This document shows positions 22,948 through 62,135 of a DNA stretch of 64,000 bases, piece by piece; positions within the stretch are counted from its first letter, which is position 1, and each line of letters begins with the position of its first letter. A program made the position numbers and the translations under genes. This DNA comes from an uncultured Muribaculaceae bacterium. Lineage in GTDB: Bacteria; Bacillota_I; Bacilli_A; RF39; UBA660. Below the pieces are notes generated by a model. It was not told the DNA's origin. It saw only the letters and a program-made list of their open reading frames with translations, and made no database searches. The DNA lies in the NCBI GenBank assembly GCA_964473455.1, contig CAYYQX010000002.1, positions 45,086 to 109,085 of the forward strand, read 5' to 3'.

Positions 22948-23739
22948 TTGAAAGATGAACAAAATTTTATAAGACAAATTGTTAAAAATAAAAATCCTAA
23001 GTTTATTTATGGCTATAACGGAGAAGTAAGAGCTAAGTTTTTAAAAAGATTGGCGTCTTCTTTTCCAGTAATTACTGATGCAAAAAACAAAATAGGAATT
23101 GGTGTTTATATTGAAGGAAGAAGTCTTCCTATAACAAATCAAAACCTAAATCCTATAGTAAATACTTTTTATAGTCAAACGTATCTTAATTTATTAATTA
23201 TTTATAATATTTTAAATACACTTATAGAACAAATAGATAGTAAAAATTTGGAAAGTCGTTCGAAAAGCTTTCTAAAAGAAATTAATACAAAAATCAATTT
23301 ACCTCTGCACATAAATAGTTTAAATAAATTAAGAGATACCTTTAAAAAAGACTTAGATAATGTTTATGAAAAATACTGTGACTATTTAACTAAAGGTGAG
23401 TCTGCCCTTGATGAGGTTCCTTGTTTAATACCAACAGAATATTCGTTACTAGAAATCTATTTAAGCTTGTTATTAAAAATGTTAAATACTAATGCTTATT
23501 TTATTCTAATATTTGATCAACAAGAAAAGTTTTCAGACGAAACTAAAAAGGAAATTATAAATCTTACAACGTCTGAAATTATCGAATACATTTCAATAAA
23601 TATTGCTTGTGAGCCAAATGAGTGGCAAACATTTGAAGAAGACTTAAAATATAACGAGGCAATAAGTTCTTTTACGACTATTGAAATAGATGATTGCTTT
23701 AAAGATACAAAAGGAAAAGCAAAAACTCTGAATATATAA
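22948..23739 (+). CDS. hypothetical protein, paralog A of a tandem pair (degenerate AAA+/DnaC-like motifs?)
   Basis: 263 aa. Shares with the next ORF the blocks KFIYGYNGE.RA.FLK, IG.YIEG..LP, Y.NLLII.NILN..IEQ, YF.IIFDQQ and ACEPNEW.T.E. Followed by a hairpin terminator at 23740-23766. Confidence 0.5.
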   Translation: MKDEQNFIRQIVKNKNPKFIYGYNGEVRAKFLKRLASSFPVITDAKNKIGIGVYIEGRSLPITNQNLNPIVNTFYSQTYLNLLIIYNILNTLIEQIDSKNLESRSKSFLKEINTKINLPLHINSLNKLRDTFKKDLDNVYEKYCDYLTKGESALDEVPCLIPTEYSLLEIYLSLLLKMLNTNAYFILIFDQQEKFSDETKKEIINLTTSEIIEYISINIACEPNEWQTFEEDLKYNEAISSFTTIEIDDCFKDTKGKAKTLNI

Positions 23740-23812: not shown

Positions 23813-24625
23813 ATGACACGTAAGTTGGGGGAATTTATGGAAAGCAATCAATATTTGTATGAAAGAATAATTGGAAGAAGTAGTCATAAATTCATTTATG
23901 GCTATAACGGGGAAGAAAGAGCAAGTTTTTTAAAAAAGGCTGCCCTTGCTTATTCAATTAATGGTGAATCCAATACACCAATTGGCATTTATATTGAAGG
24001 TGAACAATTGCCTGTACCAAATAAAAGCCTTGAAAGGGAAGCTGTTGTGACTTTCTCACATCAATGCTATATCAACTTGTTAATAATTTTAAATATTTTA
24101 AATGCGATTATCGAACAAGGTGACAGACAAATTTCTAAAGACCGTTTAAAAAAGTTTTTTAATAATCTTCAAAAAGTATTTGGTTTATCTAAAGACATAA
24201 ATAATTTAAGTGCCTTAAGAGCTAGCTTAAAAAGTGAACTAGATGCTTGTTATAATAAATATGTTAAATATATAAATACAGGCAATTTACAAGAATATCT
24301 TGCCCAACCAACAACTAAATATGTAATACTAGATATATACTTAAGACATTTTAAAATTCTTTTAAATACTGATTCATACTTTGCTATAATCTTTGATCAG
24401 CAAACTATGTTTTCTACTTTAACCCAAAAAACAATTAATAGCCTTATTGGTCACAGAAATAATAGTGATATTGCCATTAATGTTGCTTGTGAACCAAATG
24501 AATGGGAAACACTAGAAGGACTGAATAATAATTTTATTAACGCTATGCATGATTTTGATTATGTTAAGTTAGATGCTTGTTATCAAGAAACCGTTAATGG
24601 AGCCAAAAGACGTACATTAAAATAA
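23813..24625 (+). CDS. hypothetical protein, paralog B of the tandem pair
   Basis: 270 aa. Colinear similarity to 22948..23739 across the whole length (see the motifs listed for paralog A). Confidence 0.5.
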   Translation: MTRKLGEFMESNQYLYERIIGRSSHKFIYGYNGEERASFLKKAALAYSINGESNTPIGIYIEGEQLPVPNKSLEREAVVTFSHQCYINLLIILNILNAIIEQGDRQISKDRLKKFFNNLQKVFGLSKDINNLSALRASLKSELDACYNKYVKYINTGNLQEYLAQPTTKYVILDIYLRHFKILLNTDSYFAIIFDQQTMFSTLTQKTINSLIGHRNNSDIAINVACEPNEWETLEGLNNNFINAMHDFDYVKLDACYQETVNGAKRRTLK

Positions 24626-30097: not shown

Positions 30098-30625
30098 ATG
30101 AAAAAAGGTTTTACTTTACTAGAAATGTTAACCGTTTTGGTTTTAATTACTTTAATAGTTTCTATTACTTATTCTGTTTTTCAAAAACAAATAGAAACTT
30201 CTAAGCAAAAACTATACGATAATCAAATAAATATGATTGAAAAAGCTGGCAAGGATTATAACTTGATGAATTTAAATATCAAAGGAGTAATGATATCTAC
30301 ACTATTGGGAACTGATTTAATCAGCAATGAAACAATTGTTAATCCAATAGATAAGAGTACTATTACTGGATGTGTTATTTTTGATGAAAATAGTTATAAT
30401 CAAACAGAATATGTATATGAAAGTGACTTAAATACTTGCTTAGTTAATGCTTACAACAGTTATAACGTGTTATATGACAGTGAGGTTGTTCTTTTAACTG
30501 AACTAGTAAATACTAATTATATTAGTTTAAGTGATATTACAATAAGTGGTAATGTTATGACGGGTTGTATGATGTTAGTGAATGATGAAGTTATTTATGA
30601 AAGCAATGTTTCAAACTGTAATTAA
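30098..30625 (+). CDS. type IV pilin-like / competence pseudopilin (prepilin-type N-terminal cleavage-methylation domain)
   Basis: 175 aa. N-terminus MKKGFTLLEMLTVLVLITLIV is the classic G|FTLLE prepilin motif followed by a hydrophobic helix. Confidence 0.6.
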   Translation: MKKGFTLLEMLTVLVLITLIVSITYSVFQKQIETSKQKLYDNQINMIEKAGKDYNLMNLNIKGVMISTLLGTDLISNETIVNPIDKSTITGCVIFDENSYNQTEYVYESDLNTCLVNAYNSYNVLYDSEVVLLTELVNTNYISLSDITISGNVMTGCMMLVNDEVIYESNVSNCN

Positions 30626-30639
30626 TAACTTCTTTTTTC

Positions 30640-30667
30640 TTGATTTATTTATGTTTTATTGTATAAT
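30640..30667 (+). promoter_or_regulatory. sigma-A type promoter for the tRNA pair: -35 TTGATT, 16-nt spacer, extended -10 TGTATAAT
   Basis: Read from the sequence. tRNA-Gln begins 8 nt downstream of the -10 element. Confidence 0.6.
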
Positions 30668-30675
30668 GTTTATAT

Positions 30676-30749
30676 TGCCTCATGGCCAAGTGGTAAGGCA
30701 GTAGACTCTGACTCTACGATCGTTAGTTCGAATCTGACTGAGGCAGCCA
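30676..30749 (+). tRNA. tRNA-Gln, anticodon CUG
   Basis: Manual cloverleaf. Acceptor stem TGCCTCA/TGAGGCA, D-arm GCCAAGTGGTAAGGC as in Gln tRNAs, anticodon stem GTAGA/TCTAC, anticodon loop CT-CTG-AC, T-arm GTTAG-TTCGAAT-CTGAC, 3' GCCA. Confidence 0.7.
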
Positions 30750-30752
30750 AAC

Positions 30753-30828
30753 GACCTGTTGGTGAAGCGGTTAACACATTGCCCTCTCAAGGCAACATTC
30801 ATGGGTTCAAATCCCATACAGGTTACCA
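30753..30828 (+). tRNA. tRNA-Glu, anticodon CUC
   Basis: Strong similarity to Bacillus tRNA-Glu (GTTGGT.AAGCGGTTAA...GGGTTC.AATCCC.TAC.GGT.ACCA). Anticodon stem TTGCC/GGCAA, anticodon loop CT-CTC-AA, 3' ACCA. Confidence 0.7.
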
Positions 30829-30890
30829 ATATTTGTGATATAATAAAAAGAGGAGGATATTATACCAATTCTTATTTAATAAAGGACTTA

Positions 30891-31220
30891 TTGGTTGTTC
30901 ATGTTTTTAAATTTTTACCAGATGTAGAAAGTGAATCAGATATGAGAGTAGGGCCTATTTCTACCGGACCAACAATGAGCGACGAATACTTAACCGTTAT
31001 AACTAAAATAGATGGGCAATACTATGATTTAAAATACTCTAATAGGGAAATAAGCTTGTCTTTCTTATCAACAGATAATACACCTTATTATGCTTCTCAA
31101 ATAGAACCACTAAGTCTTTATTATCAGTCAGAAAATGGCTGCATTTCTAAAAAAGATTTATTAGCTTTTATTGAAAAAATGCAGAATGAAGAAAAGCAAA
31201 ACTTGAAACATCAAAGATAA
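30891..31220 (+). CDS. hypothetical protein (start uncertain)
   Basis: The ORF-track frame 30759..31220 begins inside tRNA-Glu, so the 5' part is not coding. An AGGAGG sits at 30851-30856, but no canonical start codon lies at proper spacing. A TTG at 30891 or a later ATG is possible. Confidence 0.3.
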   Translation: MVVHVFKFLPDVESESDMRVGPISTGPTMSDEYLTVITKIDGQYYDLKYSNREISLSFLSTDNTPYYASQIEPLSLYYQSENGCISKKDLLAFIEKMQNEEKQNLKHQR

Positions 31221-31233
31221 AATACTAAACTTA

Positions 31234-31256
31234 AACACTAGTTAATAGTGTTTTTT
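31234..31256 (+). terminator. rho-independent terminator (aacactagttaatagtgtt plus a T6 run), copy 1 of a repeated 28-nt element
   Basis: Hairpin with a 7-bp stem followed by TTTTTT. An identical 28-nt string cttaaacactagttaatagtgtttttta recurs at 32138-32165. Confidence 0.55.
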
Positions 31257-31310
31257 AATTGCTAAGCTTTTTACGTTGTGATATACTTTTTTTATAATAA
31301 AGGAGAAAAA

Positions 31311-32135
31311 ATGGAAGAAAAAAGTTCAAAAAGTTATGTTTTAGTGGTTATCCTGTTTGTGTTAGTAGTAGGGTTAGGGGGATATATTGCTTATGATAAA
31401 ATAATAGGTGATGGCAAAGAAAATGAAGAAGTGGTTAACGAAAAGGAGACTGTCGACTATAAAATTGCAGACTATATTACCATTAAGGACGTAGAAATTG
31501 ACTATAAAAGTGGAATTACCTGTTCAACCTGCACAGTTGAAATAAAGGGAAAAACAATTGAATTTACTGATTTACCGCTTGGTACAACAATAGAGTTTTT
31601 AAAACTACATAAAAAGTTTCTTGCCCCAACCATTCCAGATGGTTTAGTTGCAACTTTTTCGAATAGCATAATTTATGAAGTCGACAACAATATTTTGTCC
31701 ATTTATACAGAGGAAGAATACAGAGAAGAAGACTGGCTTTATGGAATGTTTTGGAACAGATATAGCTTAAACATTGATTTAAATAATAAAAAAATAATAA
31801 CAAACGAAGAGTTAATAAATATATATGGCTTAAATATTAATACAATTTATGAAAAAATATTAAATAATATTGCAACAACAATTAAAATTGAAGAACTCTC
31901 TTTAAACAATTTGGGCATTTGTAGTGAGCAAACCATTAAAATAACAGACTTTGCAAAAAATATCCCCGAATATTCTGAGATGTTAAACAACAGATATGAT
32001 ATTTTTACTTTATACTTAAAGGACAACAAAGTATATTGTGCTTATAAAATATATGACGTAATAGCACTATTAGGTATGGGAACTTGCGGTGGTATGGAAC
32101 TTGCTGAAAACGAACAAACAATTGTTTTAAACTAA
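31311..32135 (+). CDS. hypothetical membrane-anchored protein
   Basis: ORF track gives 31278..32135. The internal start MEEKSSKSY (31311) follows an AAAGGAGAAAAA RBS. One N-terminal TM helix, then a roughly 240-aa extracytoplasmic domain. Confidence 0.45.
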   Translation: MEEKSSKSYVLVVILFVLVVGLGGYIAYDKIIGDGKENEEVVNEKETVDYKIADYITIKDVEIDYKSGITCSTCTVEIKGKTIEFTDLPLGTTIEFLKLHKKFLAPTIPDGLVATFSNSIIYEVDNNILSIYTEEEYREEDWLYGMFWNRYSLNIDLNNKKIITNEELINIYGLNINTIYEKILNNIATTIKIEELSLNNLGICSEQTIKITDFAKNIPEYSEMLNNRYDIFTLYLKDNKVYCAYKIYDVIALLGMGTCGGMELAENEQTIVLN

Positions 32136-32141
32136 ATCTTA

Positions 32142-32166
32142 AACACTAGTTAATAGTGTTTTTTAT
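32142..32166 (+). terminator. rho-independent terminator, copy 2 of the repeated element
   Basis: Same hairpin and T-run as 31234-31256, lying 6 nt after the stop at 32133-32135. Confidence 0.55.
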
Positions 32167-32196
32167 ATGTTATAATAGTTTTAATAGGAGAATTCT

Positions 32197-33087
32197 ATGA
32201 CATACTTACTATATGGAACAAACAATTATTTAATAAAAGAAAAAATTAATGAAATAATTGCAGATAATCTAATTGACTCTGATTCCATTTCAAAATATTC
32301 TTTTGAAAACACAATTGAAGAAATAATAGATGATATTACGTCTTTACCTCTTTTTAGTGATAAAAAGTTAGTTATTGTAGAAGACTTTACCTTTGACAAT
32401 ACTAAAGAACTAGAACAATATTTGGAAAAAGAAAATGAGCAAGTTGTATTAGTAATTATTATTAATAGTGAAACAATAGATAAAAGAAGGAAACTTTTCA
32501 AATCAATTAAAAATGTCTTTGAATACAATAAAGCAGATGCATTTAATATTGCCAAAAAAATGTTTGAAGATTATAAGATAAGTGATAATACAATTAGACT
32601 TCTAATAAATAGGGTAGGAAACAGTATAGATAACCTTAAAAATGAAATTGATAAATTAAAATTATACAAAATAGAGGAAAAAGAAATAAAGGAAGAAGAC
32701 ATTTTAACAACAATAAAATATATTAGTGATGACATATTTTATTTTATAGACAATGTTGTAAACAAAAACAATGAAGTTGTATTTGAAATATATGAAGAAA
32801 TGTTAAAGAAAAAAACTGATCCATCTGGAATAATAGTCCTTCTAGCTAATCAAATTAGATTAATGTATCAAGTAAAAAAACTAGTCAATCAATATAACGT
32901 TGATTCTATTGCCGAAATTTTAGAAGTTCACCCATATAGAGTGAAGCTTGCTGTTGAAAAAAGCAAAATGTATTCAAGTGAAGTTTTACTAAGTTTACTA
33001 GAAAAGTTAGCTAACTTAGACATTGATATTAAAAGTGGTAAAGTAGAACCTGAAATAGGCATAGAATTATTCTTACTAGGAATATAA
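32197..33087 (+). CDS. holA: DNA polymerase III delta subunit (HolA/YqeN-like)
   Basis: 296 aa. N-terminal LYGTNNYLIKEKINEI and overall clamp-loader delta architecture. Low-complexity match only. Confidence 0.55.
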   Translation: MTYLLYGTNNYLIKEKINEIIADNLIDSDSISKYSFENTIEEIIDDITSLPLFSDKKLVIVEDFTFDNTKELEQYLEKENEQVVLVIIINSETIDKRRKLFKSIKNVFEYNKADAFNIAKKMFEDYKISDNTIRLLINRVGNSIDNLKNEIDKLKLYKIEEKEIKEEDILTTIKYISDDIFYFIDNVVNKNNEVVFEIYEEMLKKKTDPSGIIVLLANQIRLMYQVKKLVNQYNVDSIAEILEVHPYRVKLAVEKSKMYSSEVLLSLLEKLANLDIDIKSGKVEPEIGIELFLLGI

Positions 33088-46018: not shown

Positions 46019-47134
46019 CTATCTTTCAATATATTTTATTCCTAAAGATTCTACATAATATTTTATCTTTATTTCACTAATTCTCTTCCAGTTTTCTAAA
46101 TTGTAATACCAATAAAAGTTGTTTGAATTACTCATATAGGCATGTTCATATAAAGAAACATTGACATTAAATATATCCTTTGGAACTCTAATAACCGCAT
46201 AATAGTCTATATAACTATATACTTGACCTTGTGTTTTATCATACCTTTCATAAGTTATACTGTCTTTTGAATACAACGTAAATTGATTATTTATTAAATA
46301 GACTGGATATATACTCATAATACTATCAAAGATTTGCTTTTCAGGAGTACCTATTACATTAACAGAGTTTGAAACAATGAGTTCAAAGCCACTGTCATAT
46401 TTACTATAAGAAGAGTTAGTATGGTTACTATAAGCTATTTTAGAAACAACCCCATAATAACCTACCGCATTACTTCTTTTTTGAATTAAAGTCCATTCAT
46501 CGTTCTCAATAGTGATGCCATAGGTATCATCTTCTCTTGTTAAAAGAACTTTTAAACCGTGTTCAATATACCTTTCTTTTTCATATAAAGAAACCATTAA
46601 ATTCAAGTCTTTTTCATACATGGTTGAATTGGATGCACCTACATCTACCCCACCATGTCCTACATCTATTAAAATATCATATGCATAATTAAAATTTTCT
46701 ATTTTAATTTTTTCTATTTCTTCTTCATATATAAAAGTTATTAATTTGTCGTTTAGTTTTGTTCTGTTTAGCTTGGTTAAATCGTCCAATATAGTTGTTA
46801 AGTAATAATACTTGTCTGTTTTAATATATATATTGTATTCTCCATTTTCTAAAGTTGTTAAATCAAGATCTATATAGTAATTTTCTTCTGCCTTAATTAG
46901 TTCATATTCAATATTGTTTATAACTAAATAAGGGGTTAGTTCACTTTCAATAAACATTTCCAAATGTACACCATTTTGTATATAGGAGTTCTTTGTAATA
47001 TAGAAATTGTCCGTTACTAATTCGGCACTAATAGTATTTTCTTTTGGTTCTTTAACAAAAAAAGAGTTTACTATAAAATAAACACCACTTATTATAAGTA
47101 ATATTAAAATAAGAATAAAAACCTTTTTTATCAT
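46019..47134 (-). CDS. N-acetylmuramoyl-L-alanine amidase (Amidase_3 domain) with an N-terminal membrane anchor and an uncharacterised middle domain
   Basis: 371 aa. Amidase_3 signature IDVGHGGVDVGASNSTMYEKDLNLMVSL...LKVLLTREDD. Confidence 0.55.
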   Translation of the reverse strand: MIKKVFILILILLIISGVYFIVNSFFVKEPKENTISAELVTDNFYITKNSYIQNGVHLEMFIESELTPYLVINNIEYELIKAEENYYIDLDLTTLENGEYNIYIKTDKYYYLTTILDDLTKLNRTKLNDKLITFIYEEEIEKIKIENFNYAYDILIDVGHGGVDVGASNSTMYEKDLNLMVSLYEKERYIEHGLKVLLTREDDTYGITIENDEWTLIQKRSNAVGYYGVVSKIAYSNHTNSSYSKYDSGFELIVSNSVNVIGTPEKQIFDSIMSIYPVYLINNQFTLYSKDSITYERYDKTQGQVYSYIDYYAVIRVPKDIFNVNVSLYEHAYMSNSNNFYWYYNLENWKRISEIKIKYYVESLGIKYIER

Positions 47135-52640: not shown

Positions 52641-53723
52641 CTATTTTGTCAAATTTTTCCTTTCAAATATAACATTTGTCTTAAGGACAAACAGTGTGAC
52701 AATAACAAATAATACCGCATAAATTATATAACCTAATACTCGATTATTTATAACATATACAATAGAAGCTAGAGAAAAAAGGACATTAATTACATAAATT
52801 ATTAAAACTGTTTTTGGATGTGAAAATTTTTTATTTAATAATTGATGATGAATGTGACACTTGTCTGGCATTGATACTTTTTGACCTTTTAATTTTCTTC
52901 TTAAAATGGCAAATAATGTATCTAATATTGGAATGGCTAGTATTAATAAAGGAACAACTATGGCAGAAGCTAATACGTTTTTAAAGCCTAACAAAGTTAT
53001 TATTGAAATAATAAAGCCTAAGAATAAAGATCCAGAGTCACCCATAAATATCTTAGCTGGATAGAAATTATGAATCAAAAACCCTAAACAAGCTCCAAGC
53101 ATGATAAAAGTAAGCTGAAAAGGAAGTGCGAACTGTCCTAATATTACAGTTATAATTCCAATAGTTAAAAAATAAATTGAACTAATTCCTGCCGCAAGAC
53201 CATCTAACCCGTCAATCAAATTCATACAGTTAATACAACCAAGCATAAATAAAATAGTAATCGGATAAGCAAAAATACCAAAATTTATATAAATACCAAA
53301 AGCATTAATTTCATTTAAAATAATCCCACCATAAACTACTACTATCAATGAGGCGATAAATTGAAAAAGAAGCTTTATTTTTGCAGAAATAGGTTTTATA
53401 TCATCCATTATACCAATAAATACAATAATAAAACTTCCAATTAATATAGATATCATTTTGTCATTAATAATCCCAAAAACCATATAGCCAAATAAAAATG
53501 CAGTATATATCGCAAGGCCGCCCATTCTTGGCATTGGAACCTTATGAACTTTTCTCTCATCAGGCTTGTCCATCGCACCAATATAAATCGCTAATTTTTT
53601 AATAATTGGGACAATTAAAACAGAAATTAAGAATGCAGATGAGATCATAAGTAATATTTCAAGAACTATTTTATCCATAAACTTCACCATGCTAATATTA
53701 ACACAATTTCTAAAACTTGACAA
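52641..53723 (-). CDS. tagO: undecaprenyl-phosphate N-acetylhexosamine-1-phosphate transferase (TagO/WecA family, PNPT superfamily)
   Basis: 360 aa with about 10-11 TM helices. Cytoplasmic loop motifs DDIKPISAKIKL and MPDKCHIHHQLL (HIHH). Size matches TagO/WecA rather than MraY. Confidence 0.7.
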   Translation of the reverse strand: MSSFRNCVNISMVKFMDKIVLEILLMISSAFLISVLIVPIIKKLAIYIGAMDKPDERKVHKVPMPRMGGLAIYTAFLFGYMVFGIINDKMISILIGSFIIVFIGIMDDIKPISAKIKLLFQFIASLIVVVYGGIILNEINAFGIYINFGIFAYPITILFMLGCINCMNLIDGLDGLAAGISSIYFLTIGIITVILGQFALPFQLTFIMLGACLGFLIHNFYPAKIFMGDSGSLFLGFIISIITLLGFKNVLASAIVVPLLILAIPILDTLFAILRRKLKGQKVSMPDKCHIHHQLLNKKFSHPKTVLIIYVINVLFSLASIVYVINNRVLGYIIYAVLFVIVTLFVLKTNVIFERKNLTK

Positions 53724-53763
53724 TATTTTGTTTAACTTTAAATATATTTATTATATAATAGAT

Positions 53764-55482
53764 ATGGTGAATGATATGAAGGAAAAAAATATTTTTATAA
53801 GCATTGTAGAAATACTATTGTTAGTAACTGCTGTTGCTTATTTTGTGATAACTATATTTTTTATTGAAGATAATAAAATATTTCATTTAATTAGTGCTGC
53901 TCTTTTATCAAGTGGTTTAATTATTCGCTTTATTGAAAACGTATCTAAAAAAAAGTCTTTATATAAAATTTTGTTTTCTTTTATTATTAGTGCTTTTGTA
54001 ATTTTTAATATCTTGCACGTTTTTGGATTTTTTTATGAAAATAAAACTTTATTTGGAGATTTTTATAACACTTCAATAAACAATTTACTTTCTTTTGCGG
54101 AACAAAATAATATTACTGTTGAACAAAGCTATGAATATAGTGACACTGTTGAAGAATTTAACATTATTAGTCAAAGTGTTTTTGCTAATACTGAATTAAC
54201 AGAAGTAACTTCTGTTCGAATAGTTGTATCTTTAGGTCCCAATTATGATAAGGAAGTAATTGTTCCTAATTTAATTGGACAAACAATAAATGATTTGTTA
54301 TTAATCAAAAAAGAATTGTTTTTAAATAACATTGTTGTTAATTATGAAACAAGTGATCAGTACGCTAAAGATGTTATTATTGATCAGTCTTTTAAAGGGC
54401 AATGTAAAAGAAATACTTTAATAACATTTACTATTTCTCTTGGCAGTGAAGTTTTAGAAACAAATATGATTTCACTAAAAGACATGTCTTTGTTTGATGC
54501 TACTTTATGGTTAAAACAAAATGGAATAAAATATAATTTAACTTATGAATTTAATGATGTTAAAAGAAATTATATTGTTAGTCAAGATATTCAAGAAGGG
54601 ACTTCAGTTAATTCTTCTATGACAATCAATCTTATTGTCTCAAAAGGTAAAAGCATAACTGTACCAAATTTACTCGATATGACAAGTGATGAAGTTATAA
54701 ATTGGATAATAGACAATGAACTAAAAATTGAATTTAGTGATAGCTATGATACTGCTATTCCTCTTGGAAAAATCATTAGTGCTAATTATAATGAAGGAGA
54801 CATAATTGAAGTTCAAACACTAGTTAAAATAGTAACTTCTAAAGGACAATTACTTTTTCCTGGATTTACTTCTTTAAATGATTTTAGAACTTGGGCTAGT
54901 AAAAATAGTATAAACTATAACGAAGAATATCAAATGAGTACTACTGTTGCTAAAGGCAATATCATTAGCTTTTCAGTTGGTACTAGCGCTATTATTGACG
55001 TTAATAGTAACATTACTGTTTATGTTTCTAGTGGTCGCCCTGTTACTGTTCCAAACTTTTATGGCCAATCACAAAGCAATATTACTAATACTTGTAATAA
55101 TATAGGCTTAACTTGTGCTTTTTATGAATCTGGTTATTCTAGTGTTAGTGCAGGTAGTTCAATTGGCCAAAGTATTAAAAGTGGTGTTGTAGTGGTTGAA
55201 GCAACTTATCTTTCAATTGGCCTAAGTAAAGGACCAGCTCAAAATTTCACTGTTCAGATAAATCAAAGTTCAATTCAAAGCTGTATTGGAAATTCTGACT
55301 GTACTATTAACTATTTAAGACAATTATTTGCAAATAATTATCCCGGTGTGACTGTTAATTTTGTTTTAAAAACAAGTAGTGTTTTCCAATTTGCCGGTAA
55401 TATTCATGAAGATTCAGCAATTAAAGATGGTTCGCTTGTTACGCAAGGAAAAACATATACAATTACAATTACTAAATCATAA
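53764..55482 (+). CDS. membrane protein with 5-6 tandem PASTA-like domains (no kinase or transpeptidase domain)
   Basis: ORF track gives 53689..55482. The probable start is MVNDMKEKN at 53764. Four N-terminal TM helices, then repeats beginning VPNLIGQTINDL, MISLKDMSLFDATLWLKQNG, VPNLLDMTSDEVINWI, PGFTSLNDFRTWASKNS and VPNFYGQSQSNITNTCNNIG, each about 65-70 aa with a PASTA-like pattern. Confidence 0.55.
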   Translation: MVNDMKEKNIFISIVEILLLVTAVAYFVITIFFIEDNKIFHLISAALLSSGLIIRFIENVSKKKSLYKILFSFIISAFVIFNILHVFGFFYENKTLFGDFYNTSINNLLSFAEQNNITVEQSYEYSDTVEEFNIISQSVFANTELTEVTSVRIVVSLGPNYDKEVIVPNLIGQTINDLLLIKKELFLNNIVVNYETSDQYAKDVIIDQSFKGQCKRNTLITFTISLGSEVLETNMISLKDMSLFDATLWLKQNGIKYNLTYEFNDVKRNYIVSQDIQEGTSVNSSMTINLIVSKGKSITVPNLLDMTSDEVINWIIDNELKIEFSDSYDTAIPLGKIISANYNEGDIIEVQTLVKIVTSKGQLLFPGFTSLNDFRTWASKNSINYNEEYQMSTTVAKGNIISFSVGTSAIIDVNSNITVYVSSGRPVTVPNFYGQSQSNITNTCNNIGLTCAFYESGYSSVSAGSSIGQSIKSGVVVVEATYLSIGLSKGPAQNFTVQINQSSIQSCIGNSDCTINYLRQLFANNYPGVTVNFVLKTSSVFQFAGNIHEDSAIKDGSLVTQGKTYTITITKS

Positions 55483-55510: not shown

Positions 55511-58500
55511 TTATACCTCTTCAACTGTTAGTTCAACTCTGAATCTGTTTTGATCATTAACTGACAAACTATATTTTTTATTACCGACTGTAACAGTGGC
55601 TGTAGCTTTTCTAAATAAGTCGTGCAATTCACCAAAGTCATCGATATTACCAGTAATTGTTCTAAAATATATTACATATTTTCCAACAGATAGTGTTGAA
55701 AGATCCACTTTACCTGTTGTATTAAACCAAGATCTTGCTTTTGATAGTCCATCATTTGTTCTTAGTATTAATTCTTCTCCTATTGTTGAACCTATGTTAT
55801 ATGTAAATTTTTCTTCTGTTACTGTATTTTCTAAGATTAAATATCTCGTAATACTTGTTGTTGAACTGTAATTACCTTGTAGATTAAATGAGTTACCAGT
55901 TATATTTAAGCTAGCTCCAGTAAAGCTAATAGATGTATATGTATTAAACATATTAGATGAAGCTTCAGGTTCAGTTTTAGAAATCAAACCTTTTTCGTAT
56001 ATGAAGAGTTCTATCGGAAAGGCTTTTTTATAATTGTTGTTTCTAAATAAATAACCTCTTTCATCACTGTCTGTTGCTTTTTTAGTTACATCTTTTAAAA
56101 ACAAATTACTAAGTATTTCTTTTGTCTCATAGTTTGAGCTTCTAGCTCTAATGTAAATAGTATATTCACCTTTGGCAACGTCTTTTAAACTGACATTTCC
56201 TCTAAACCATGTCTCAGTATAAGTATGACTTTTATCGTTATAAACAGTAGTTGGATGGTCGTTTAAATACCTTTCCAGTGGTAAAACTACTTCATAACCA
56301 TTGGTGTTGTTCTTTAGAATCAAGCTATATTGAATTAAGGTATCTTTTGTATTATTAATTCCAATCATAGCTAAGGAACCATTTATTTCCAATAAGTTAG
56401 TGTCTGAATTATATTCTAGTTTATTAAAGTATAACTCTCCTGTTAAAGTAGTATAACTAGTATTTTCAACGTATACTTTTATACTCTTTGTAGTTGTATT
56501 ATCATCAGTATCAGTTGCGCTATATGTTAAATCATATGTTCCAGCAACTGTCTTATTAACGTTATGTGTAACTTCAATTTCAGTAATGATTCCATCTTCT
56601 AAGTCAGATGCGGTTACACCTTCTAAATAAGTTAAGCTTTCATTTACTTTCATATAGATATTAGTTGTTCTGATAACTGGTTTAGCATTTGATACAACTT
56701 CAATACTAACTGTTTTTGTTGTTGTTAAATCAAGACTATTTGTTACACTATACTCTACAGTATAAGTTCCAACTGTTGTTGCATCAACATCATTACTTAT
56801 GATATCTATTTGATCAGTAATGTTACCATCTGTTGGATCTTCTGCCCCTACTCCAAAGTATGGATCAAAAGTTGTATTTTGTAATATTTGTCTATTATTA
56901 GCAACTATTTTAGGTTTATATGTTTTTGTGATTTCAACTTCTATTGTTTTGCTTACTGAAAAGTTATTATCATCAACTACGGTATATGTTAAATCAAATG
57001 TTCCATAATTAGATGTTGTAAGTTCCGGATAGTAAGTTACTTTATCAGATAAATTTCCATCTTCAGTATCGCTAGCAGTTACATCTGTTAAGAAGTCATA
57101 ATACGTATCTTGTTCAATAGTAATGTTAGAAGCTATAATCGTTGGTTGATTGTTTTTAACAAAAAGATATTCTCCTTTAATATATCCATAGCTTTTACTA
57201 AATGAATAGTTACTACTTGAAATATTTTGATCATCGTCTAATGAGGTATCAGTATATACCTTATACCAAGCATTATTACTTTCATCGTATACTTTATCAA
57301 AGACAATAAAAGGCACCATTGGAACTGAAAAAGAATTGTTTTTTATTATATATATTGTATCTGAAGTATCACTTGGTTCTTTTTTAATAGGAGTATCAGT
57401 ATTACTTACCTTAATACCTAAAGTATTGGAATTATAGTCTTGCCCGCCATACATTAAATCTCTATTGTAAGCAATTCCAGCGGCTTTTTCACCCCAATAA
57501 GGGTCTGATGCATATTTGACATTCATTCCACTACCCTTGTTGCCGTAATGGCTACCAAAGTAACGCCAATCATATGGATTACTATAGCCAGAGCCAAAAG
57601 TGCTGGCATGCGCTAGAATAGATTCTCTAATTGAAGTATATGTATTTGCACAAGTATACACGCAACCATCATTTGCTCCGTGACCAAAGATGTTAAACTT
57701 TCCAAATGATAAAGCACTTGTTCCAGTAGCAGATTCATTTATCGCTGCTGAAAACGATAAAAGGGCATTTACTCCATATGTTTCTTGAGCTTCAATAAAG
57801 TATGCACCCTGCCCATATAAAAGAGATATTCCTACTCTACTATTTGCCGTAAACGCTCCTGTTGCAGTATCAATATAATAACTTTGACTTTGTAATAAAT
57901 TAGAGCTAAAAGAAAGAGCAATTATTTGATTAAAACTAGTTGCAGTATATCCTGTTTTACTGTGAGTTGGTAAATACATATAGTAGTTATAGTAAGGGTT
58001 AGTATAATTAATACTGTTTTCATAAGTATTATTTTTATAATCATCTATCATTGTAATATAGTTTTCATAAAAATAGTTTCCATCAAAACTGTAATAGTTT
58101 TTATTAGTTAAAAACATTGTTGGCGCTGCACCTAAGTTAATATACTCAACTGAAGTGTTTTCATAATAAGCATGCCAAAATTTACCACTACTTGTTTTAG
58201 TATAGTACGTATAAACTTTTGGAATAACTTTTTCTGTTAGATTAGTCCCTGAAACATTATTGGTAATATAATTATTCATAGATATTGTCAGATTGCCAAT
58301 CAAATGATATGTTTTAACTTCTCCACTTTGAGTGATTGCGTCATATTCATAGGCTCCATTTTTATCTAGTAAAACTCCGTCATTTGTATAAACATTATCA
58401 TTATTTACAACAACATAAGTTTTTGAAATAGTAGAAATTGGAATTATATTCACATTACTTAAACTAACCCATCCAGTAAAACCACTTATTTTTATTTTAA

Positions 58501-58879
58501 CAGAGTTATAAGTGTCATTAAATTCCAAAAAGGCCATATCTAAATATGTATTTCTTCCTGTTATATAAGTATATTCTCCACTTAAATTTTCACTAGTATA
58601 AAGATAAATTAAATCAGAGCTTGTTCCAGTAGATTTTGCTAAAGCATATGATGCATTAACAATAACATCATTTTTTTTAATCACAGCAACAAGATTCGCA
58701 CTCGCTTCATAAGTTATCATTTTATTATAAGCACTAGTATAATTATCAAAAGTTTCTTCATTAGTTGGAGTTCCTGCTTTATCTACCGTATAAACTTTAT
58801 AAGTTGATGTTGCCAAAACAGAATTAGGCATTACGAAAAAAAATAATATTAAAAATATTAATAATACTACTTTTTTCAT
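55511..58879 (-). CDS. large secreted GH73-family peptidoglycan hydrolase (N-acetylglucosaminidase) with three tandem Ig-like (DUF5011-type) repeats
   Basis: 1122 aa. Signal peptide MKKVVLLIFLILFFFVMPNSVLA. GH73 core GQGAYFIEAQETYGVNALLSFSAAINESATGTSAL...FGHGA and YASDPYWGEKAAGIAYN. Three repeats of about 75 aa (TSNYGTFDLTYTVVDDNNFSVSKTIEVEI, TTVGTYTVEYSVTNSLDLTTTKTVSIEVV, TVAGTYDLTYSATDTDDNTTTKSIKVYV). Confidence 0.6.
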   Translation of the reverse strand: MKKVVLLIFLILFFFVMPNSVLATSTYKVYTVDKAGTPTNEETFDNYTSAYNKMITYEASANLVAVIKKNDVIVNASYALAKSTGTSSDLIYLYTSENLSGEYTYITGRNTYLDMAFLEFNDTYNSVKIKISGFTGWVSLSNVNIIPISTISKTYVVVNNDNVYTNDGVLLDKNGAYEYDAITQSGEVKTYHLIGNLTISMNNYITNNVSGTNLTEKVIPKVYTYYTKTSSGKFWHAYYENTSVEYINLGAAPTMFLTNKNYYSFDGNYFYENYITMIDDYKNNTYENSINYTNPYYNYYMYLPTHSKTGYTATSFNQIIALSFSSNLLQSQSYYIDTATGAFTANSRVGISLLYGQGAYFIEAQETYGVNALLSFSAAINESATGTSALSFGKFNIFGHGANDGCVYTCANTYTSIRESILAHASTFGSGYSNPYDWRYFGSHYGNKGSGMNVKYASDPYWGEKAAGIAYNRDLMYGGQDYNSNTLGIKVSNTDTPIKKEPSDTSDTIYIIKNNSFSVPMVPFIVFDKVYDESNNAWYKVYTDTSLDDDQNISSSNYSFSKSYGYIKGEYLFVKNNQPTIIASNITIEQDTYYDFLTDVTASDTEDGNLSDKVTYYPELTTSNYGTFDLTYTVVDDNNFSVSKTIEVEITKTYKPKIVANNRQILQNTTFDPYFGVGAEDPTDGNITDQIDIISNDVDATTVGTYTVEYSVTNSLDLTTTKTVSIEVVSNAKPVIRTTNIYMKVNESLTYLEGVTASDLEDGIITEIEVTHNVNKTVAGTYDLTYSATDTDDNTTTKSIKVYVENTSYTTLTGELYFNKLEYNSDTNLLEINGSLAMIGINNTKDTLIQYSLILKNNTNGYEVVLPLERYLNDHPTTVYNDKSHTYTETWFRGNVSLKDVAKGEYTIYIRARSSNYETKEILSNLFLKDVTKKATDSDERGYLFRNNNYKKAFPIELFIYEKGLISKTEPEASSNMFNTYTSISFTGASLNITGNSFNLQGNYSSTTSITRYLILENTVTEEKFTYNIGSTIGEELILRTNDGLSKARSWFNTTGKVDLSTLSVGKYVIYFRTITGNIDDFGELHDLFRKATATVTVGNKKYSLSVNDQNRFRVELTVEEV

Positions 58880-58890
58880 AATATCCTCCT

Positions 58891-60108
58891 TTATATAGAT
58901 TTATAAGGGTTTGTTTCCGTTCCTTCCCCTTTAAATTCGAACGTTTTATCAATATAAATAACTGCATAACCATTATTGGTACTACTTATACTGCTATTAG
59001 TAAAAGCACCACTTACAATACTCCAAACTGTTGTTGTATTCATACTATTAAAAGTCCAAGAGTTTTTTGCTAACCAATTATTGCTTAAACAAGCACTTGA
59101 AATATTATTTTGATTGCACGAAGAATTTATTGTAGCTTTAATAATATCGCTAACTGATAATGTGCCAATATATCCTCCAGAATTTTTTCCTTTATAAATC
59201 GTTGCTTTTTCAGAATTTATAATATTTGTTAAACTATTACCAATAACCGTTGTAATGTAACCAACATCCCAAGAAGCATCATATACTATAAGCTCATCTT
59301 CTAGATTAATGTTTAAACTGGAAAATAATAAACTGTTTGTACTTGAAGTGGCTAAATAAGCTCCACCCGACAAATAACTATCGTTTGTATAAAAAGATGT
59401 CGTATTGTCAAACTTAACATTTTGATTTAATTTCAATAAAACCTTTACGCCTTCACTTGTAACAGAAATTATCTTTCCATTGTAGTTAAACAAAGAAATA
59501 TTATTAGCTAATTCTGCTTCATTGCCTCTAAACACCAAATCCCCATTACTCATTTGATATAAGCCAGAACCACTTGTGATTACTTTGTTTCCTAGTAAAT
59601 TTTCAATTGTCGGATAATCAAATCCATTTAACTTAATGCTAGAGTATGTTTTATCGTTATATTCAGTTGCGATTATATACATATTACTATCTGGATTGTG
59701 AATTGAATTTAAATATGCGATAAACTCAGATGAAAAATTACTATTAACAAGATTTACTTTTTCTAAAGTGTATATTGCTTTATTGACATTTAATTTTGCA
59801 AAGAAAGCTTCGCAATAATCACTATCAATAAAAATGCTCGCGTCACAACTTGTTAAATCATAATACCCTGTCCCATTATAAGCTAAGTCATATGATATTT
59901 GTTCGACATCATATTGCAAAATAAATTTTTTAATTTCGTTATCTATATATAACCCATTAACACTGTTATAGTTAAGTGTTTCTGAGTAATTATTGTTAAC
60001 ATTTCTTATTTGAATGAACAAAAATATAAGCGTTATTGTAATAAAACTGGCTACAATTAAGGTTTCTGCAAGCATAAAACCTTGGCTATTTTTTTTTATC
60101 ATTATCAT
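58891..60108 (-). CDS. large prepilin-like protein (type IV pilin / pseudopilin N-terminal domain)
   Basis: 405 aa. N-terminal KKNSQGFMLAETLIVASFITITLIFLF is a G|FxLxE prepilin cleavage-methylation motif plus TM helix. The remaining roughly 370 aa are Ser/Asn/Thr-rich and uncharacterised. The gene lies 12 nt upstream of the GH73 gene on the same strand. Confidence 0.5.
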   Translation of the reverse strand: MIMIKKNSQGFMLAETLIVASFITITLIFLFIQIRNVNNNYSETLNYNSVNGLYIDNEIKKFILQYDVEQISYDLAYNGTGYYDLTSCDASIFIDSDYCEAFFAKLNVNKAIYTLEKVNLVNSNFSSEFIAYLNSIHNPDSNMYIIATEYNDKTYSSIKLNGFDYPTIENLLGNKVITSGSGLYQMSNGDLVFRGNEAELANNISLFNYNGKIISVTSEGVKVLLKLNQNVKFDNTTSFYTNDSYLSGGAYLATSSTNSLLFSSLNINLEDELIVYDASWDVGYITTVIGNSLTNIINSEKATIYKGKNSGGYIGTLSVSDIIKATINSSCNQNNISSACLSNNWLAKNSWTFNSMNTTTVWSIVSGAFTNSSISSTNNGYAVIYIDKTFEFKGEGTETNPYKSI

Positions 60109-60204
60109 ACACCTTTTCTATTGTTTTTATTCTAAATCTATTATATAATAATAAAGTAGAAAATACTAGATTAAGAGTAAAAAGAATGACAAGGGGATGA
60201 CAAA

Positions 60205-61533
60205 ATGCTTAAAGTTTTTGACTTTGAAAAACTACCAGTAGTTGAGATTGTTAATGATATTCTAGTTGATGCTTCAAAAAGAGGAGCCTCTGATATTCAT
60301 TTTGACGCTCATGATGAATTTATGAAAATTAGAATTAGAATAGACGGAAAATTAATTGATTATGCTGAAGTTCCTAATGGCATTAAGAAAAACTTAATAA
60401 CTCGTATTAAAATTATATCAGGGATGAACATTACTGAATCAAGACTTCCCCAAGATGGGGCTATTAAGAAGAATCTACAAGATATGGATTTAGACTTACG
60501 TGTTAGCTGTTTACCTACTAATTTAGGGGAAAAAATCGTTATTCGTATCTTAGACTATAGTTTAAGTTTAAATGGTATTGAACACTTGGGTTTTAGCGAG
60601 AAGAATTATCACAAAGTTTTAAAAATGATTGGTATTCCAAACGGAATAATCTTAGTAACAGGAGCAACTGGAAGTGGTAAATCTACTACTGTATATTCCG
60701 TTCTTCAAAGACTTAATAAAGAAGAAACAAACCTTGTGACTGTTGAAGACCCTATTGAAATGAACATTGAAGGTATTAACCAAGTTCAAACAAATAGTGA
60801 AATTGGTCTTACTTTTGCAACTGCCCTAAGATCTATTTTTAGACAAGACCCTGACATTATCATGATTGGAGAAATAAGAGATACTGAAACAGCTCAAATT
60901 GCCGTTAGAGCTTCAATTACAGGACATTTGGTTTTATCAACTCTGCATACTAACGACTCTTTAACAACAATTGAAAGACTTATTGATATGGGTGTTGAAA
61001 GATATTTATTATCTAGCTCACTATCTGGCATAATATCACAAAAACTCGCTCGTAAATTATGTCCAAATTGTAGAAAAAAAAGAGCTACAAATGAATATGA
61101 AAAAAAATTATTTAAAACTGTTTTAAATAAAGAGGTAAATGAAATATATGTTGCGGATGGCTGTGAAGAGTGTTCAAATGGTTATAAAGGAAGAATTGCT
61201 ATTCATGAAGTATTATTGATTAATGATGAAATAAAAAATGCTATTAATACAAACATGGACAGAGAAAAATTGAGAACTTTAGTTTATAACTCAGATGTTA
61301 TTACCTTATTACAAGACGGTCTTGAAAAAGTTGAAAGCGGTCTTACTACTGTAGAAGAGTTATTGAAGATTATTGAACTAGAAAACGATGAAAAAACAGC
61401 TGGAAAAACAGATCTAAAGTCTAGTATAGAGCTTGCCAACTTAGCTCACAGTAAAAAAGAAGAAAATAAAGTAGTTGAAAATGTAGCTGCCGAAAAAGTT
61501 GTTAATATTAATGCATTAGATAATGATTTATAA
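60205..61533 (+). CDS. type II secretion / type IV pilus assembly ATPase (GspE/PilB/ComGA family)
   Basis: 442 aa. Walker A VTGATGSGKSTT, Asp box, Walker B IIMIGEIRD, His box LVLSTLHTND, and tetracysteine motif CPNCRKK...GCEECSNGYKGR. Confidence 0.8.
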   Translation: MLKVFDFEKLPVVEIVNDILVDASKRGASDIHFDAHDEFMKIRIRIDGKLIDYAEVPNGIKKNLITRIKIISGMNITESRLPQDGAIKKNLQDMDLDLRVSCLPTNLGEKIVIRILDYSLSLNGIEHLGFSEKNYHKVLKMIGIPNGIILVTGATGSGKSTTVYSVLQRLNKEETNLVTVEDPIEMNIEGINQVQTNSEIGLTFATALRSIFRQDPDIIMIGEIRDTETAQIAVRASITGHLVLSTLHTNDSLTTIERLIDMGVERYLLSSSLSGIISQKLARKLCPNCRKKRATNEYEKKLFKTVLNKEVNEIYVADGCEECSNGYKGRIAIHEVLLINDEIKNAINTNMDREKLRTLVYNSDVITLLQDGLEKVESGLTTVEELLKIIELENDEKTAGKTDLKSSIELANLAHSKKEENKVVENVAAEKVVNINALDNDL

Positions 61534-61556: not shown

Positions 61557-62135
61557 TTGGATGGGATTATGACAATTAAACAAAATATAATACAAGAATA
61601 TAATGTAAAAAATTCAAAATTTATTGTTTTATTAATTAAGATTGATGATTGCAATATAAAGGAGCATATCAAGAAGATAAAACAAGAATATAAGAGCGCA
61701 ACGCATTATTGTTTTGCATATATTTTTAATGATTTATATAAATATAGTGATGATAAAGAACCAAGCTTTTCAGCAGGTATTCAAATATATAACGCTCTTA
61801 ACTATAATAAGCTAAATCAAGTTCTTTGTGTTGTTGTAAGGTATTTTGGTGGAACAAAATTAGGAGTTGCAACTCTTGCCAAAACTTATTTTAATTGTGT
61901 TTTAAAAACAATTGAAAATGCAGAATTAATAGAAATATCAAATAAAATATTAATAGAACTTTCTTTTAATTATCAATTTGCTAAGCAAGTAAACTCTTTA
62001 TTGAAAAAAGAGGATATATTGAAAAAGAATTTCAATGAAAAGGTAAAATATCAGTTATATATTGAGGAAGATGAGTTTTTAAAAATTATAGATGACTTAA
62101 AACGTTTTTGTGATATAGATATTAAAAAGAGGTGA
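61557..62135 (+). CDS. yigZ: YigZ/IMPACT-family protein
   Basis: 192 aa. Motifs KNSKFIVLL, ATHYCFAYIF, EPSFSAGIQI and VVVRYFGGTKLGVATL are characteristic of UPF0029/IMPACT. Confidence 0.65.
   Translation: MDGIMTIKQNIIQEYNVKNSKFIVLLIKIDDCNIKEHIKKIKQEYKSATHYCFAYIFNDLYKYSDDKEPSFSAGIQIYNALNYNKLNQVLCVVVRYFGGTKLGVATLAKTYFNCVLKTIENAELIEISNKILIELSFNYQFAKQVNSLLKKEDILKKNFNEKVKYQLYIEEDEFLKIIDDLKRFCDIDIKKR

Follow-up and report, generated by a model that had tools for sequence, protein, structure and literature searches.

A putative bimodular pilin encoded beside a GH73 glucosaminidase and divergent from a type IV filament ATPase in uncultured low-GC Bacilli

Background

A 64,000-nucleotide stretch of contig CAYYQX010000002.1 from an uncultured bacterium (assembly GCA_964473455.1; the whole stretch is referred to here as the window) raises the question of why a gene for a large prepilin-like protein should lie directly upstream of one for a peptidoglycan hydrolase and back to back with one for a pilus-type ATPase. 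The genes concerned are a prepilin-like open reading frame (ORF) of 405 amino acids (aa) (58891-60108, minus strand), a secreted N-acetylglucosaminidase of family GH73 with 1122 aa (55511-58879, minus strand) and, facing away from both, a PilB/GspE-type type IV filament extension ATPase of 442 aa (60205-61533, plus strand). A smaller, canonical type IV prepilin of 175 aa is encoded at 30098-30625 on the plus strand. All four were found where the initial annotation of this DNA had placed them. The 96 bp that it gave for the divergent spacer (60109-60204) was also correct, while the gap between the stop codon of the prepilin-like gene and the ATG of the GH73 gene proved to be 11 nucleotides (nt) and not 12. 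That annotation had read the arrangement as a wall-remodelling module of a pilus or pseudopilus and had offered, as a second possibility, that the large protein is a pilus-tip adhesin. Little is understood of the way in which type IV and Com pili get through the thick peptidoglycan of monoderms, and the first experimental hint, concerning the hydrolase LytF of Streptococcus sanguinis, dates from 2026.

In the window, which is very AT-rich (25-31% GC) and reads cleanly under genetic code 11, lies the core of a type IV filament (T4F) system, and this system is conserved in a lineage of uncultured Bacilli of very low GC content from guts and digesters. The 405-aa protein, called pilin-A below, is best read as representing an undescribed pilin family and as a minor pilin, modular in build, of a T4F system that is likewise undescribed; that it is a subunit of this lineage-wide system, most likely a minor or priming pilin, we state with high confidence. 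The explanation that accounts best for the locus as a whole, and in which we place moderate confidence, combines a bimodular tip pilin with cleavage of the wall by a co-expressed enzyme. Its parts differ in standing. Family relationships, gene linkage and predicted folds come directly from the data, whereas prepilin processing, the location at the tip, ligand binding and the coupling of hydrolase and pilus are inferred. The pilin and T4F part we regard as highly probable; the coupling of the hydrolase to the pilus is put forward tentatively.

The pilin-A family

The 405-aa ORF opens with MIMIKKNSQGFMLAETLIVASF, and its N-terminus as read is MIMIKKNSQG/FMLAETLIVASF, the slash separating positions -1 and +1. 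An ATG at position 60102 is preceded, 7 nt upstream, by the ribosome-binding site (RBS) AAAGGTG and would give the leader MIKKNSQG/F. The database gene call (P0001) has 403 aa, in agreement with this ATG, which is probably the true start of a 403-aa protein. The N-terminus MIKKNSQG/FMLAETLIVASFITITLIFLF shows the features of a class III signal, namely a short basic leader, a glycine, a hydrophobic residue at +1 and a glutamate at +5. The resemblance is not a chance one: at G10, F11, L13 and E15 of the ORF (G-1, F+1, L+3 and E+5), conservation is complete or reaches at least 90% in 38-51 divergent members of the family, and this holds in the set of 38 diverse members as well. The basic leader, three tyrosines and the pair Cys88/Cys99 are also at least 90% conserved in these members.

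A word-indexed search returned eight full-length homologs of the 405-aa protein, all of about 400 aa, 40-56% identical to it and without a Pfam domain. The family is far larger than this. An exhaustive profile search over 1.84 billion cluster representatives gave 763 matches at E<=1e-3 and 369 at E<=1e-10, nearly all of which cover profile positions 1-160 only; the first ~160 residues therefore constitute a conserved module. It occurs by itself, in proteins of 155-180 aa, or with varied C-terminal extensions in proteins of up to 1271 aa. All of the related sequences come from metagenome-assembled genomes (MAGs), and the sole database name that we met for a member (P0003) was "hypothetical protein". 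This family of ~760 cluster representatives, which the Pfam and TIGRFAM pilin signatures overlook, marks a conserved filament system in a group of gut Bacilli that is abundant but uncultured. NCBIfam models gave sub-threshold matches to many of the 38 members (ComGD in 20, ComGE in 12 and ComGF in five), and those of the window's protein are confined to the N-terminal part of the ComG models.

Predicted structure and the lectin-like extension

An AF2 model of the 405-aa protein built on a 51-sequence alignment reached a pLDDT of 88.6 and a pTM of 0.80; an earlier model from eight homologs had a pLDDT of 62 and a poor C-terminal half. The predicted parts are a long N-terminal helix (residues 9-45), a small alpha/beta head that extends to residue ~165, and a second domain (166-405). 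The pilin module (residues 1-165; 59614-60108, minus strand) has a class-III-like signal, a predicted alpha-1 helix and the small head, and the C-terminal module of ~240 aa is encoded at 58891-59613 on the same strand. This extension is predicted to adopt an enlarged C-type-lectin-like (CTLD) fold, and a Pfam search with it gave no match. By blastp (1e-6 to 1e-5) it is detectably homologous to modules at the C-terminus of other large pilins in this lineage, and these modules and the extension end in the common motif ...W.V..G...IYLK...G.GT..DPY. Among these pilins, the 342-aa protein of locus L011 alone touches Pfam DUF6273, and does so weakly.

A pilin module with a C-type-lectin-like extension has the architecture of a modular pilin (PMC8179133). 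The family as a whole follows this design, a ~160-aa module with variable extensions, and the window's member carries an extra fused domain. On its predicted fold, the 405-aa protein is a bimodular minor pilin onto which an enlarged C-type-lectin-like module of 240 aa has been grafted. By analogy with the modular pilins PilB and PilC of S. sanguinis, its probable place is the filament tip, where it would act as an adhesin that binds glycans or surfaces. The tip adhesin, which the initial annotation had kept as its alternative, thereby turns out to be the better-supported part of what it proposed, the predicted fold of the C-terminal 240 aa being the evidence for it.

We also considered whether the 405-aa protein is pilin-A fused to the lectin module of an extended form of pilin-B, the second prepilin of the related loci described below. 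The alignment with residues 218-426 of the 439-aa pilin-B of L012 is collinear but very weak (E 0.4), and the fusion hypothesis was set aside.

Large modular prepilins are numerous in the lineage and scattered around its genomes. Examples are found in L093 (7140-7889), L010 (3442-5067), L011 (7836-9398 and 1479-2507), L012 (8049-9368 and 13734-15287) and L130 (1865-3193 and 7939-9162). Their C-terminal modules differ, being cadherin-like, FGE-sulfatase-like, Ig-like together with a Gly-rich ALK_LTK_GRD region, or DUF6273/CTLD-like. The many modular pilins of the system, whether lectin-like, cadherin-like, Ig-like or Gly-rich, probably mediate attachment in the gut.

The ATPase and its linkage to pilin-A

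The ATPase matches the full Pfam T2SSE profile (PF00437; E 2e-126). Its best NCBIfam matches are GspE (493 against a cut-off of 630) and PilB (486 against 676), with ComGA at 261 against 300. No equivalog cut-off is reached, and the protein is therefore classed as an extension ATPase of the T2SSE superfamily and of no named subtype. In the PDB it matched GspE, PilF and PilB at 1e-107 to 1e-99, as against 1e-34 for PilT, and its Walker A, Asp box, Walker B, His box and tetracysteine motifs are all intact. Membership of the window genes in a Com pilus (comG) system was examined and rejected, given the ComGA score and the absence of a comG-type operon.

Among the best 120 of more than 8000 homologous MAG proteins, identity to the ATPase is 72-85%. 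The partner pilin-A sequences are only 28-56% identical, and for a pilus motor such conservation is unusually strong.

To place the pair in a wider context, one genome per species (GTDB representatives) was scanned with the pattern GFMLxETLI, which had been defined from an alignment of seven pilin-A N-domains. The 80 loci recovered all come from uncultured MAGs, labeled as Bacilli, Mollicutes/Tenericutes, Erysipelotrichaceae, Candidatus Onthousia (Bacilli incertae sedis) or Clostridium sp. CAG:451, which we take to correspond to the GTDB order RFN20 and relatives. Pilin-A lies about 100 bp from, and divergent to, an ATPase 61-85% identical to that of the window in 77 of the 80 loci; of the other three, one is cut off by the edge of its contig or lies close to it. 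Just beyond the ATPase, genes for a T2SSF platform protein (PilC) and an A24 prepilin peptidase (PilD) are present in about 37 of the loci, close to half. Directly downstream of pilin-A there follows, with few exceptions, the gene for a second prepilin, pilin-B, which has the N-terminus KG[FIM]T.[IV]EL and a size of ~170 aa, or of 400-540 aa where it has an extension. Of the machinery genes, only that of the ATPase adjoins pilin-A in the window itself. We found nothing specific in the literature on the pili of this lineage (RFN20, Erysipelotrich type IV pili).

These data strongly support the earlier proposal of a pilus or pseudopilus system to which both the 405-aa protein and the divergent ATPase belong: the N-terminal family of the protein is conserved, the two genes are head to head across the lineage, and genes for PilC and PilD lie beside that of the ATPase in roughly half of the loci. 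The ATPase is not part of an unrelated operon. That this ATPase is the assembly motor of the pilin-A filament is a conclusion that we draw with high confidence.

The 175-aa ORF is a bona fide N_methyl prepilin, MKKG/FTLLEMLTVLVL..., with a Pfam N_methyl match at 2e-5 and a TIGR02532 score above cut-off. It lies between dnaE and the genes for tRNA-Gln and tRNA-Glu, and its N-terminal region resembles that of the "major-type" pilins found beside GH73 genes in other loci, which makes it a candidate major pilin of the same system. A regular-expression scan of the whole 64 kb found two prepilin-type N-termini, those of the 405-aa and 175-aa ORFs.

Three features of the surrounding machinery were also noted. 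The ATPase gene of the window is followed by an IMPACT/YigZ-family gene (61557-62135, plus strand), a placement seen in the window sub-clade only, in the slot that PilD and PilC hold in many other lineages. The PilC/T2SSF platform protein of L011 (12192-14894, minus strand) has 900 aa and an N-terminal extension of ~480 aa, made of transmembrane segments and long, imperfect E/K/R/Q-rich repeats, which is unusual for a platform protein. The ATPase of L012 (10001-12367) adjoins holA, and 1.6 kb separate the small pilin gene from holA in the window (30098-33087). The comE operon of Bacillus subtilis is presumably also a neighbor of holA, and the two arrangements may be a relic of competence-gene synteny.

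The GH73 glucosaminidase and its neighbors

The GH73 ORF begins with a Sec-type signal peptide and an N-terminal SH3-like region. The GH73 domain (residues 359-471) is recognized as Pfam Glucosaminidase (PF01832; 48.3 bits against a cut-off of 30.2, E 2e-12), and the protein also has three Bact_surface_Ig-like stretches (E 9e-18) and a C-terminal repeat region of ~320 aa. The catalytic motifs NES382 and YASDPYWGE are present, and E382, Y456, P460, Y461 and E464 are invariant in 12 homologs. A strong RBS (AGGAGG) stands 6 nt ahead of the ATG, and no terminator-like hairpin was seen between the pilin-like gene and GH73; from this layout the two genes are probably co-transcribed. Within the 96-bp intergenic region, promoter-like hexamers occur on both strands (60192-60163, minus; 60186-60215, plus), as consensus matches only.

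The junction between pilin-A and GH73 measures 11-24 nt in every member of the window sub-clade (L001-L005, L007, L010, L013, L014, L096 and L100), down to 40% identity for pilin-A and 46% for GH73. Among the 80 pilin-A loci, a GH73 gene occurs in this sub-clade only, where it takes the slot of pilin-B, and the lectin-like extension is restricted in the same way, the two features co-occurring exactly. The linkage of the two genes in relatives holds for one sub-clade and not outside it.

In order to view the linkage from the side of the hydrolase, 83 further GH73 loci were clustered at 70% identity of the catalytic region, which gave 35 clusters. Nine of these have a pilin neighbor, in four distinct arrangements. 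The first is that of the window clade, pilin-A with its extension followed by GH73. In the second (L093 and L097), GH73 follows a 249-aa "major-type" pilin with a cadherin-like module, with no ATPase nearby. In the third (L129-L139) the order is reversed, a shorter GH73 being followed at +13 nt by a lectin-module pilin of 407-437 aa, and in the fourth (L150, L153 and L156) a pilin of 420-427 aa follows at +51 nt and lies between GH73 and a gene for a PASTA protein. In L010 a 541-aa pilin is also found downstream of GH73. Prepilin ORFs that do not adjoin GH73 number only four in 778 kb of flanking DNA, so that prepilins adjoin GH73 more often than this background would lead one to expect. For four independent adjacency events among ~35 lineages the binomial P is ~4e-4, or 5e-2 if the background is four times denser. 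We found no described counterpart in the literature for a GH73 autolysin wired directly to pilin genes.

Locus L010 carries, in addition, an IS200/IS605 pair (Y1 transposase and an OrfB/Cas12f-like TnpB; 529-2016, minus strand). About 1.4 kb, occupied by an FtsW/RodA-family gene, separate it from the gene of the 541-aa pilin. The pair is a possible agent of local rearrangement.

It is the repeated adjacency that suggests a role for the GH73 enzyme in pilus passage, and such a role is plausible. A recurrent linkage of this kind would offer a concrete and testable candidate for a dedicated wall-opening enzyme. A broader proposal is that pilin genes have, in several lineages, repeatedly been wired to GH73 as a wall-breaching module, or as a hydrolase that the pilus directs to the walls of neighboring cells; we consider it doubtful on present evidence. 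With the same reserve, these reduced-genome gut Bacilli would possess a type IV filament system that has so far escaped notice, and pilin-A would be its priming minor pilin, one that current pilin models do not see. Were the wall-breaching version true, the enzyme would give filaments that bear large lectin, cadherin or Ig-like domains a way through a thick Gram-positive wall.

The most conserved neighbor of GH73 across the lineage is a PASTA-only membrane protein, which lacks a kinase or PBP domain. In the window it is encoded at 53689-55482 on the plus strand, convergent with GH73, and consists of a transmembrane segment and six PASTA repeats (Pfam PASTA, 3e-36, six stretches). It may be a wall-sensing partner of the autolysin.

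Alternative explanations

The pilin assignment can stand while the enzyme has nothing to do with the filament. GH73 would then be a housekeeping, LytB-like autolysin of daughter-cell separation and wall turnover, paired with the PASTA-only protein, and the ATPase and pilin-A would have come to lie upstream of it in this sub-clade by a chance rearrangement, their co-transcription with it being incidental or tolerated at most. Several results favor this explanation and weigh against a pilus-dedicated hydrolase. The enzyme is a common LytB-like glucosaminidase of the lineage, with more than 1700 matches and more than 100 full-length homologs (34-64% identity) that have the same SH3, GH73 and Ig-like architecture, and no obvious pilus-specific change of architecture was seen in the GH73 proteins of the window clade. 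Its closest solved relatives, 4q2w and 7pj3 (E 1e-17), were deposited as "putative endo-beta-N-acetylglucosaminidase" and are, by our own identification, presumably pneumococcal LytB. LytB is a cell-separation enzyme. No pilin neighbor is present in 26 of the 35 clusters. A convergent pairing of GH73 with the PASTA-only gene was seen in ~14 of the 27 GH73 clusters examined, including pilin-free ones, and looks older and more widespread than the pairing with pilins. Other neighbors of GH73 are wall-related, among them a TagO-like GT4, a Pfam Sulfatase-family protein that is possibly LtaS-like, and a putative LCP-family protein recognized by eye. The confinement of GH73 to one sub-clade among the 80 pilin-A loci points the same way, and the adjacency P values given above depend on a background known only approximately and on independent events counted by hand.

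Opposed to these are three features of the linkage. Prepilins adjoin GH73 in four arrangements, upstream or downstream and with different pilin types, and almost none occur elsewhere in the flanks; the short junction is kept across deep divergence in the clade; and the CTLD extension and GH73 adjacency coincide exactly among the 80 loci. On balance we think the housekeeping explanation, the main rival, unlikely, though far from negligible. The wall-remodelling role that the initial annotation had assigned to GH73 thus gains from the four arrangements and loses from the pilin-free clusters, the PASTA pairing and the commonness of the enzyme.

A second possibility is that GH73 is an offensive enzyme: a lectin-tipped pilus would bind the wall of a neighbor and the glucosaminidase would lyse that cell and so free DNA or nutrients, in a fratricin- or epibiont-like manner that would suit an organism with a reduced genome. 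In its favor are the probable co-transcription of GH73 with a pilin that bears a module of a glycan-binding type, the large size of the secreted enzyme with its multiple putative wall-binding domains, and the precedent of competence-linked murein hydrolases such as CbpD in streptococci (PMC13192262). In the window, where ORFs of at least 100 aa were read, there is however no immunity gene, no sign of a competence regulon and no DNA-uptake gene; GH73 shows the conservation of a housekeeping gene and has the PASTA protein as its partner; and LytF itself is not a fratricin (PMC13192262). We regard this possibility as improbable.

Finally, some results count against the pilin assignment itself. 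The window's pilin-A matches neither Pfam N_methyl nor TIGR02532, none of the 38 family members matches Pfam N_methyl (PF07963) at E<=0.01, and the head domain of the model gave no significant structural match to pilins in a Foldseek search against the PDB. As the initial annotation had noted for the adjoining genes, PilC and PilD were absent when all ORFs of at least 100 aa in the 64-kb window were read, and tblastn searches of the window with PilC, PilD and pilin-B queries from related loci gave no match; the lack of these genes in the window also weighs against a working pilus machine in this genome. The 405-aa protein might on these grounds be a signal-anchored surface lectin whose proximity to the ATPase is without function, but the linkage data (77 of 80 loci divergent from a PilB-type ATPase, followed by a second prepilin, and with PilC and PilD often adjoining), the conservation of G-1, F+1 and E+5 at 90% or more across divergent homologs and the sub-threshold ComGD, ComGE and ComGF matches to the N-termini of many members make this very unlikely.

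Proposed mechanism

Under the favored explanation, a tip pilin with a co-expressed wall hydrolase, the divergent promoter region would drive the ATPase gene on one side and the operon of pilin-A-CTLD and GH73 on the other. Pilin-A would be cleaved by a prepilin peptidase encoded elsewhere in the genome, pulled out of the membrane by the machine of ATPase and platform protein, and packed into the filament by means of its alpha-1 helix. From a position at the tip or close to it, it would display the lectin-like module, and the glucosaminidase made with it would loosen the wall where filaments with such bulky modules emerge. In this the enzyme would be the counterpart of LytF for the streptococcal Com pilus and of the GH73 domain of FlgJ for the flagellar rod.

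Other genes of the window

The remaining genes are housekeeping ones, among them a wall-polysaccharide cluster, DnaB/DnaI, dnaE, holA, rarA, xerD, mnmA, xseA, nusB, mutS and pyrG, most of these names having been read by eye from the translations, without a family-library scan. Upstream of the DnaB/DnaD-like and DnaI-like genes are two tandem paralogues of 263 and 270 aa (22948-23739 and 23813-24625, plus strand), which have the motif ...KFIYGYNGE.RA.FLK... in common. Two mechanically called ORFs on the plus strand (30659-30838 and 30759-31220) overlap the genes for tRNA-Gln (30676-30749) and tRNA-Glu (30753-30828), and at least their 5' parts are therefore spurious. A 371-aa membrane-anchored protein (46019-47134, minus strand) contains DVGHGGVDVGA and has, by eye, the look of an Amidase_3-type N-acetylmuramoyl-L-alanine amidase.

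Comparison with known systems

The closest parallel to pilin-A is found in the modular pilins of S. sanguinis, in which a pilin module is joined to a vWA domain in PilB and to a ConA-like lectin domain in PilC (PMC8179133, PMC9934059). In both cases a small pilin module at the N-terminus, provided with a class III signal, is combined with a bulky C-terminal module of a ligand-binding kind, the protein is encoded with monoderm type IV pilus machinery, and a location at the tip is expected. The proteins differ in that pilin-A comes from a separate family that IPR012902 and N_methyl do not see, and in the nature of the graft, which is predicted to be an enlarged C-type-lectin-like module of the type found in the IgA peptidase N-terminal domain and in Lcl, and not vWA or ConA-like. 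The machinery genes are scattered here and do not form one pil locus, and the system described here is known from sequence alone.

For the lectin-like module, the structures to compare are the N-terminal domain of the Thomasclavelia ramosa IgA peptidase, which precedes the metallopeptidase and is dispensable for catalysis (9qa6; PMC12237041), and the C-terminal domain of Legionella Lcl (8q4e). Identity to them is 13-15%, and the module is grafted onto a pilin here.

ComGD, ComGE and ComGF (NCBIfam NF040982, NF041013 and NF041002) are the only named models that gave a signal with the family, through the region of the N-terminal helix. Hosts among the monoderm Bacilli and a size of ~160 aa are common to both groups. 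The scores are, however, far below cut-offs, there is no comG operon, and the ATPase is of the 442-aa PilB/GspE type with a tetracysteine motif.

Four enzymes or groups of enzymes can be set beside GH73. LytF of S. sanguinis is a CHAP-type enzyme under the competence regulon and, to our knowledge, is not encoded next to pilin genes. It is a competence-induced peptidoglycan hydrolase that promotes extrusion of the Com pilus (PMC13192262), and like GH73 it is a wall hydrolase that a monoderm secretes, that is expressed alongside a type IV filament and that may open the wall for this filament. Here, in contrast, a GH73 glucosaminidase lies directly downstream of a pilin gene, and its function is a prediction. 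Specialized wall hydrolases of trans-envelope machines include FlgJ, whose C-terminal GH73 domain acts with the flagellar rod, and the lytic transglycosylases of T4bP, T2SS and T4SS loci. In these, as in the window, a peptidoglycan glycan-strand hydrolase is genetically coupled to a wall-crossing machine, and FlgJ belongs to the GH73 family as well. FlgJ and the transglycosylases are small, dedicated to their machines and found in diderms, whereas the enzyme described here is a 1122-aa multidomain autolysin that is common without a pilus neighbor. LytB (4q2w, 7pj3; E 1e-17) and staphylococcal AtlE (4pi7; E 3e-4) have in common with it the motifs NES...G and YA[ST]DPY and an SH3-like domain upstream of GH73. 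It differs from them in having no choline-binding repeats, in its three Ig-like repeats and ~320-aa C-terminal repeat region, and in probably forming an operon with a pilin gene. The system as a whole, while not a member of a named subtype, resembles a monoderm type IV pilus with modular minor pilins.

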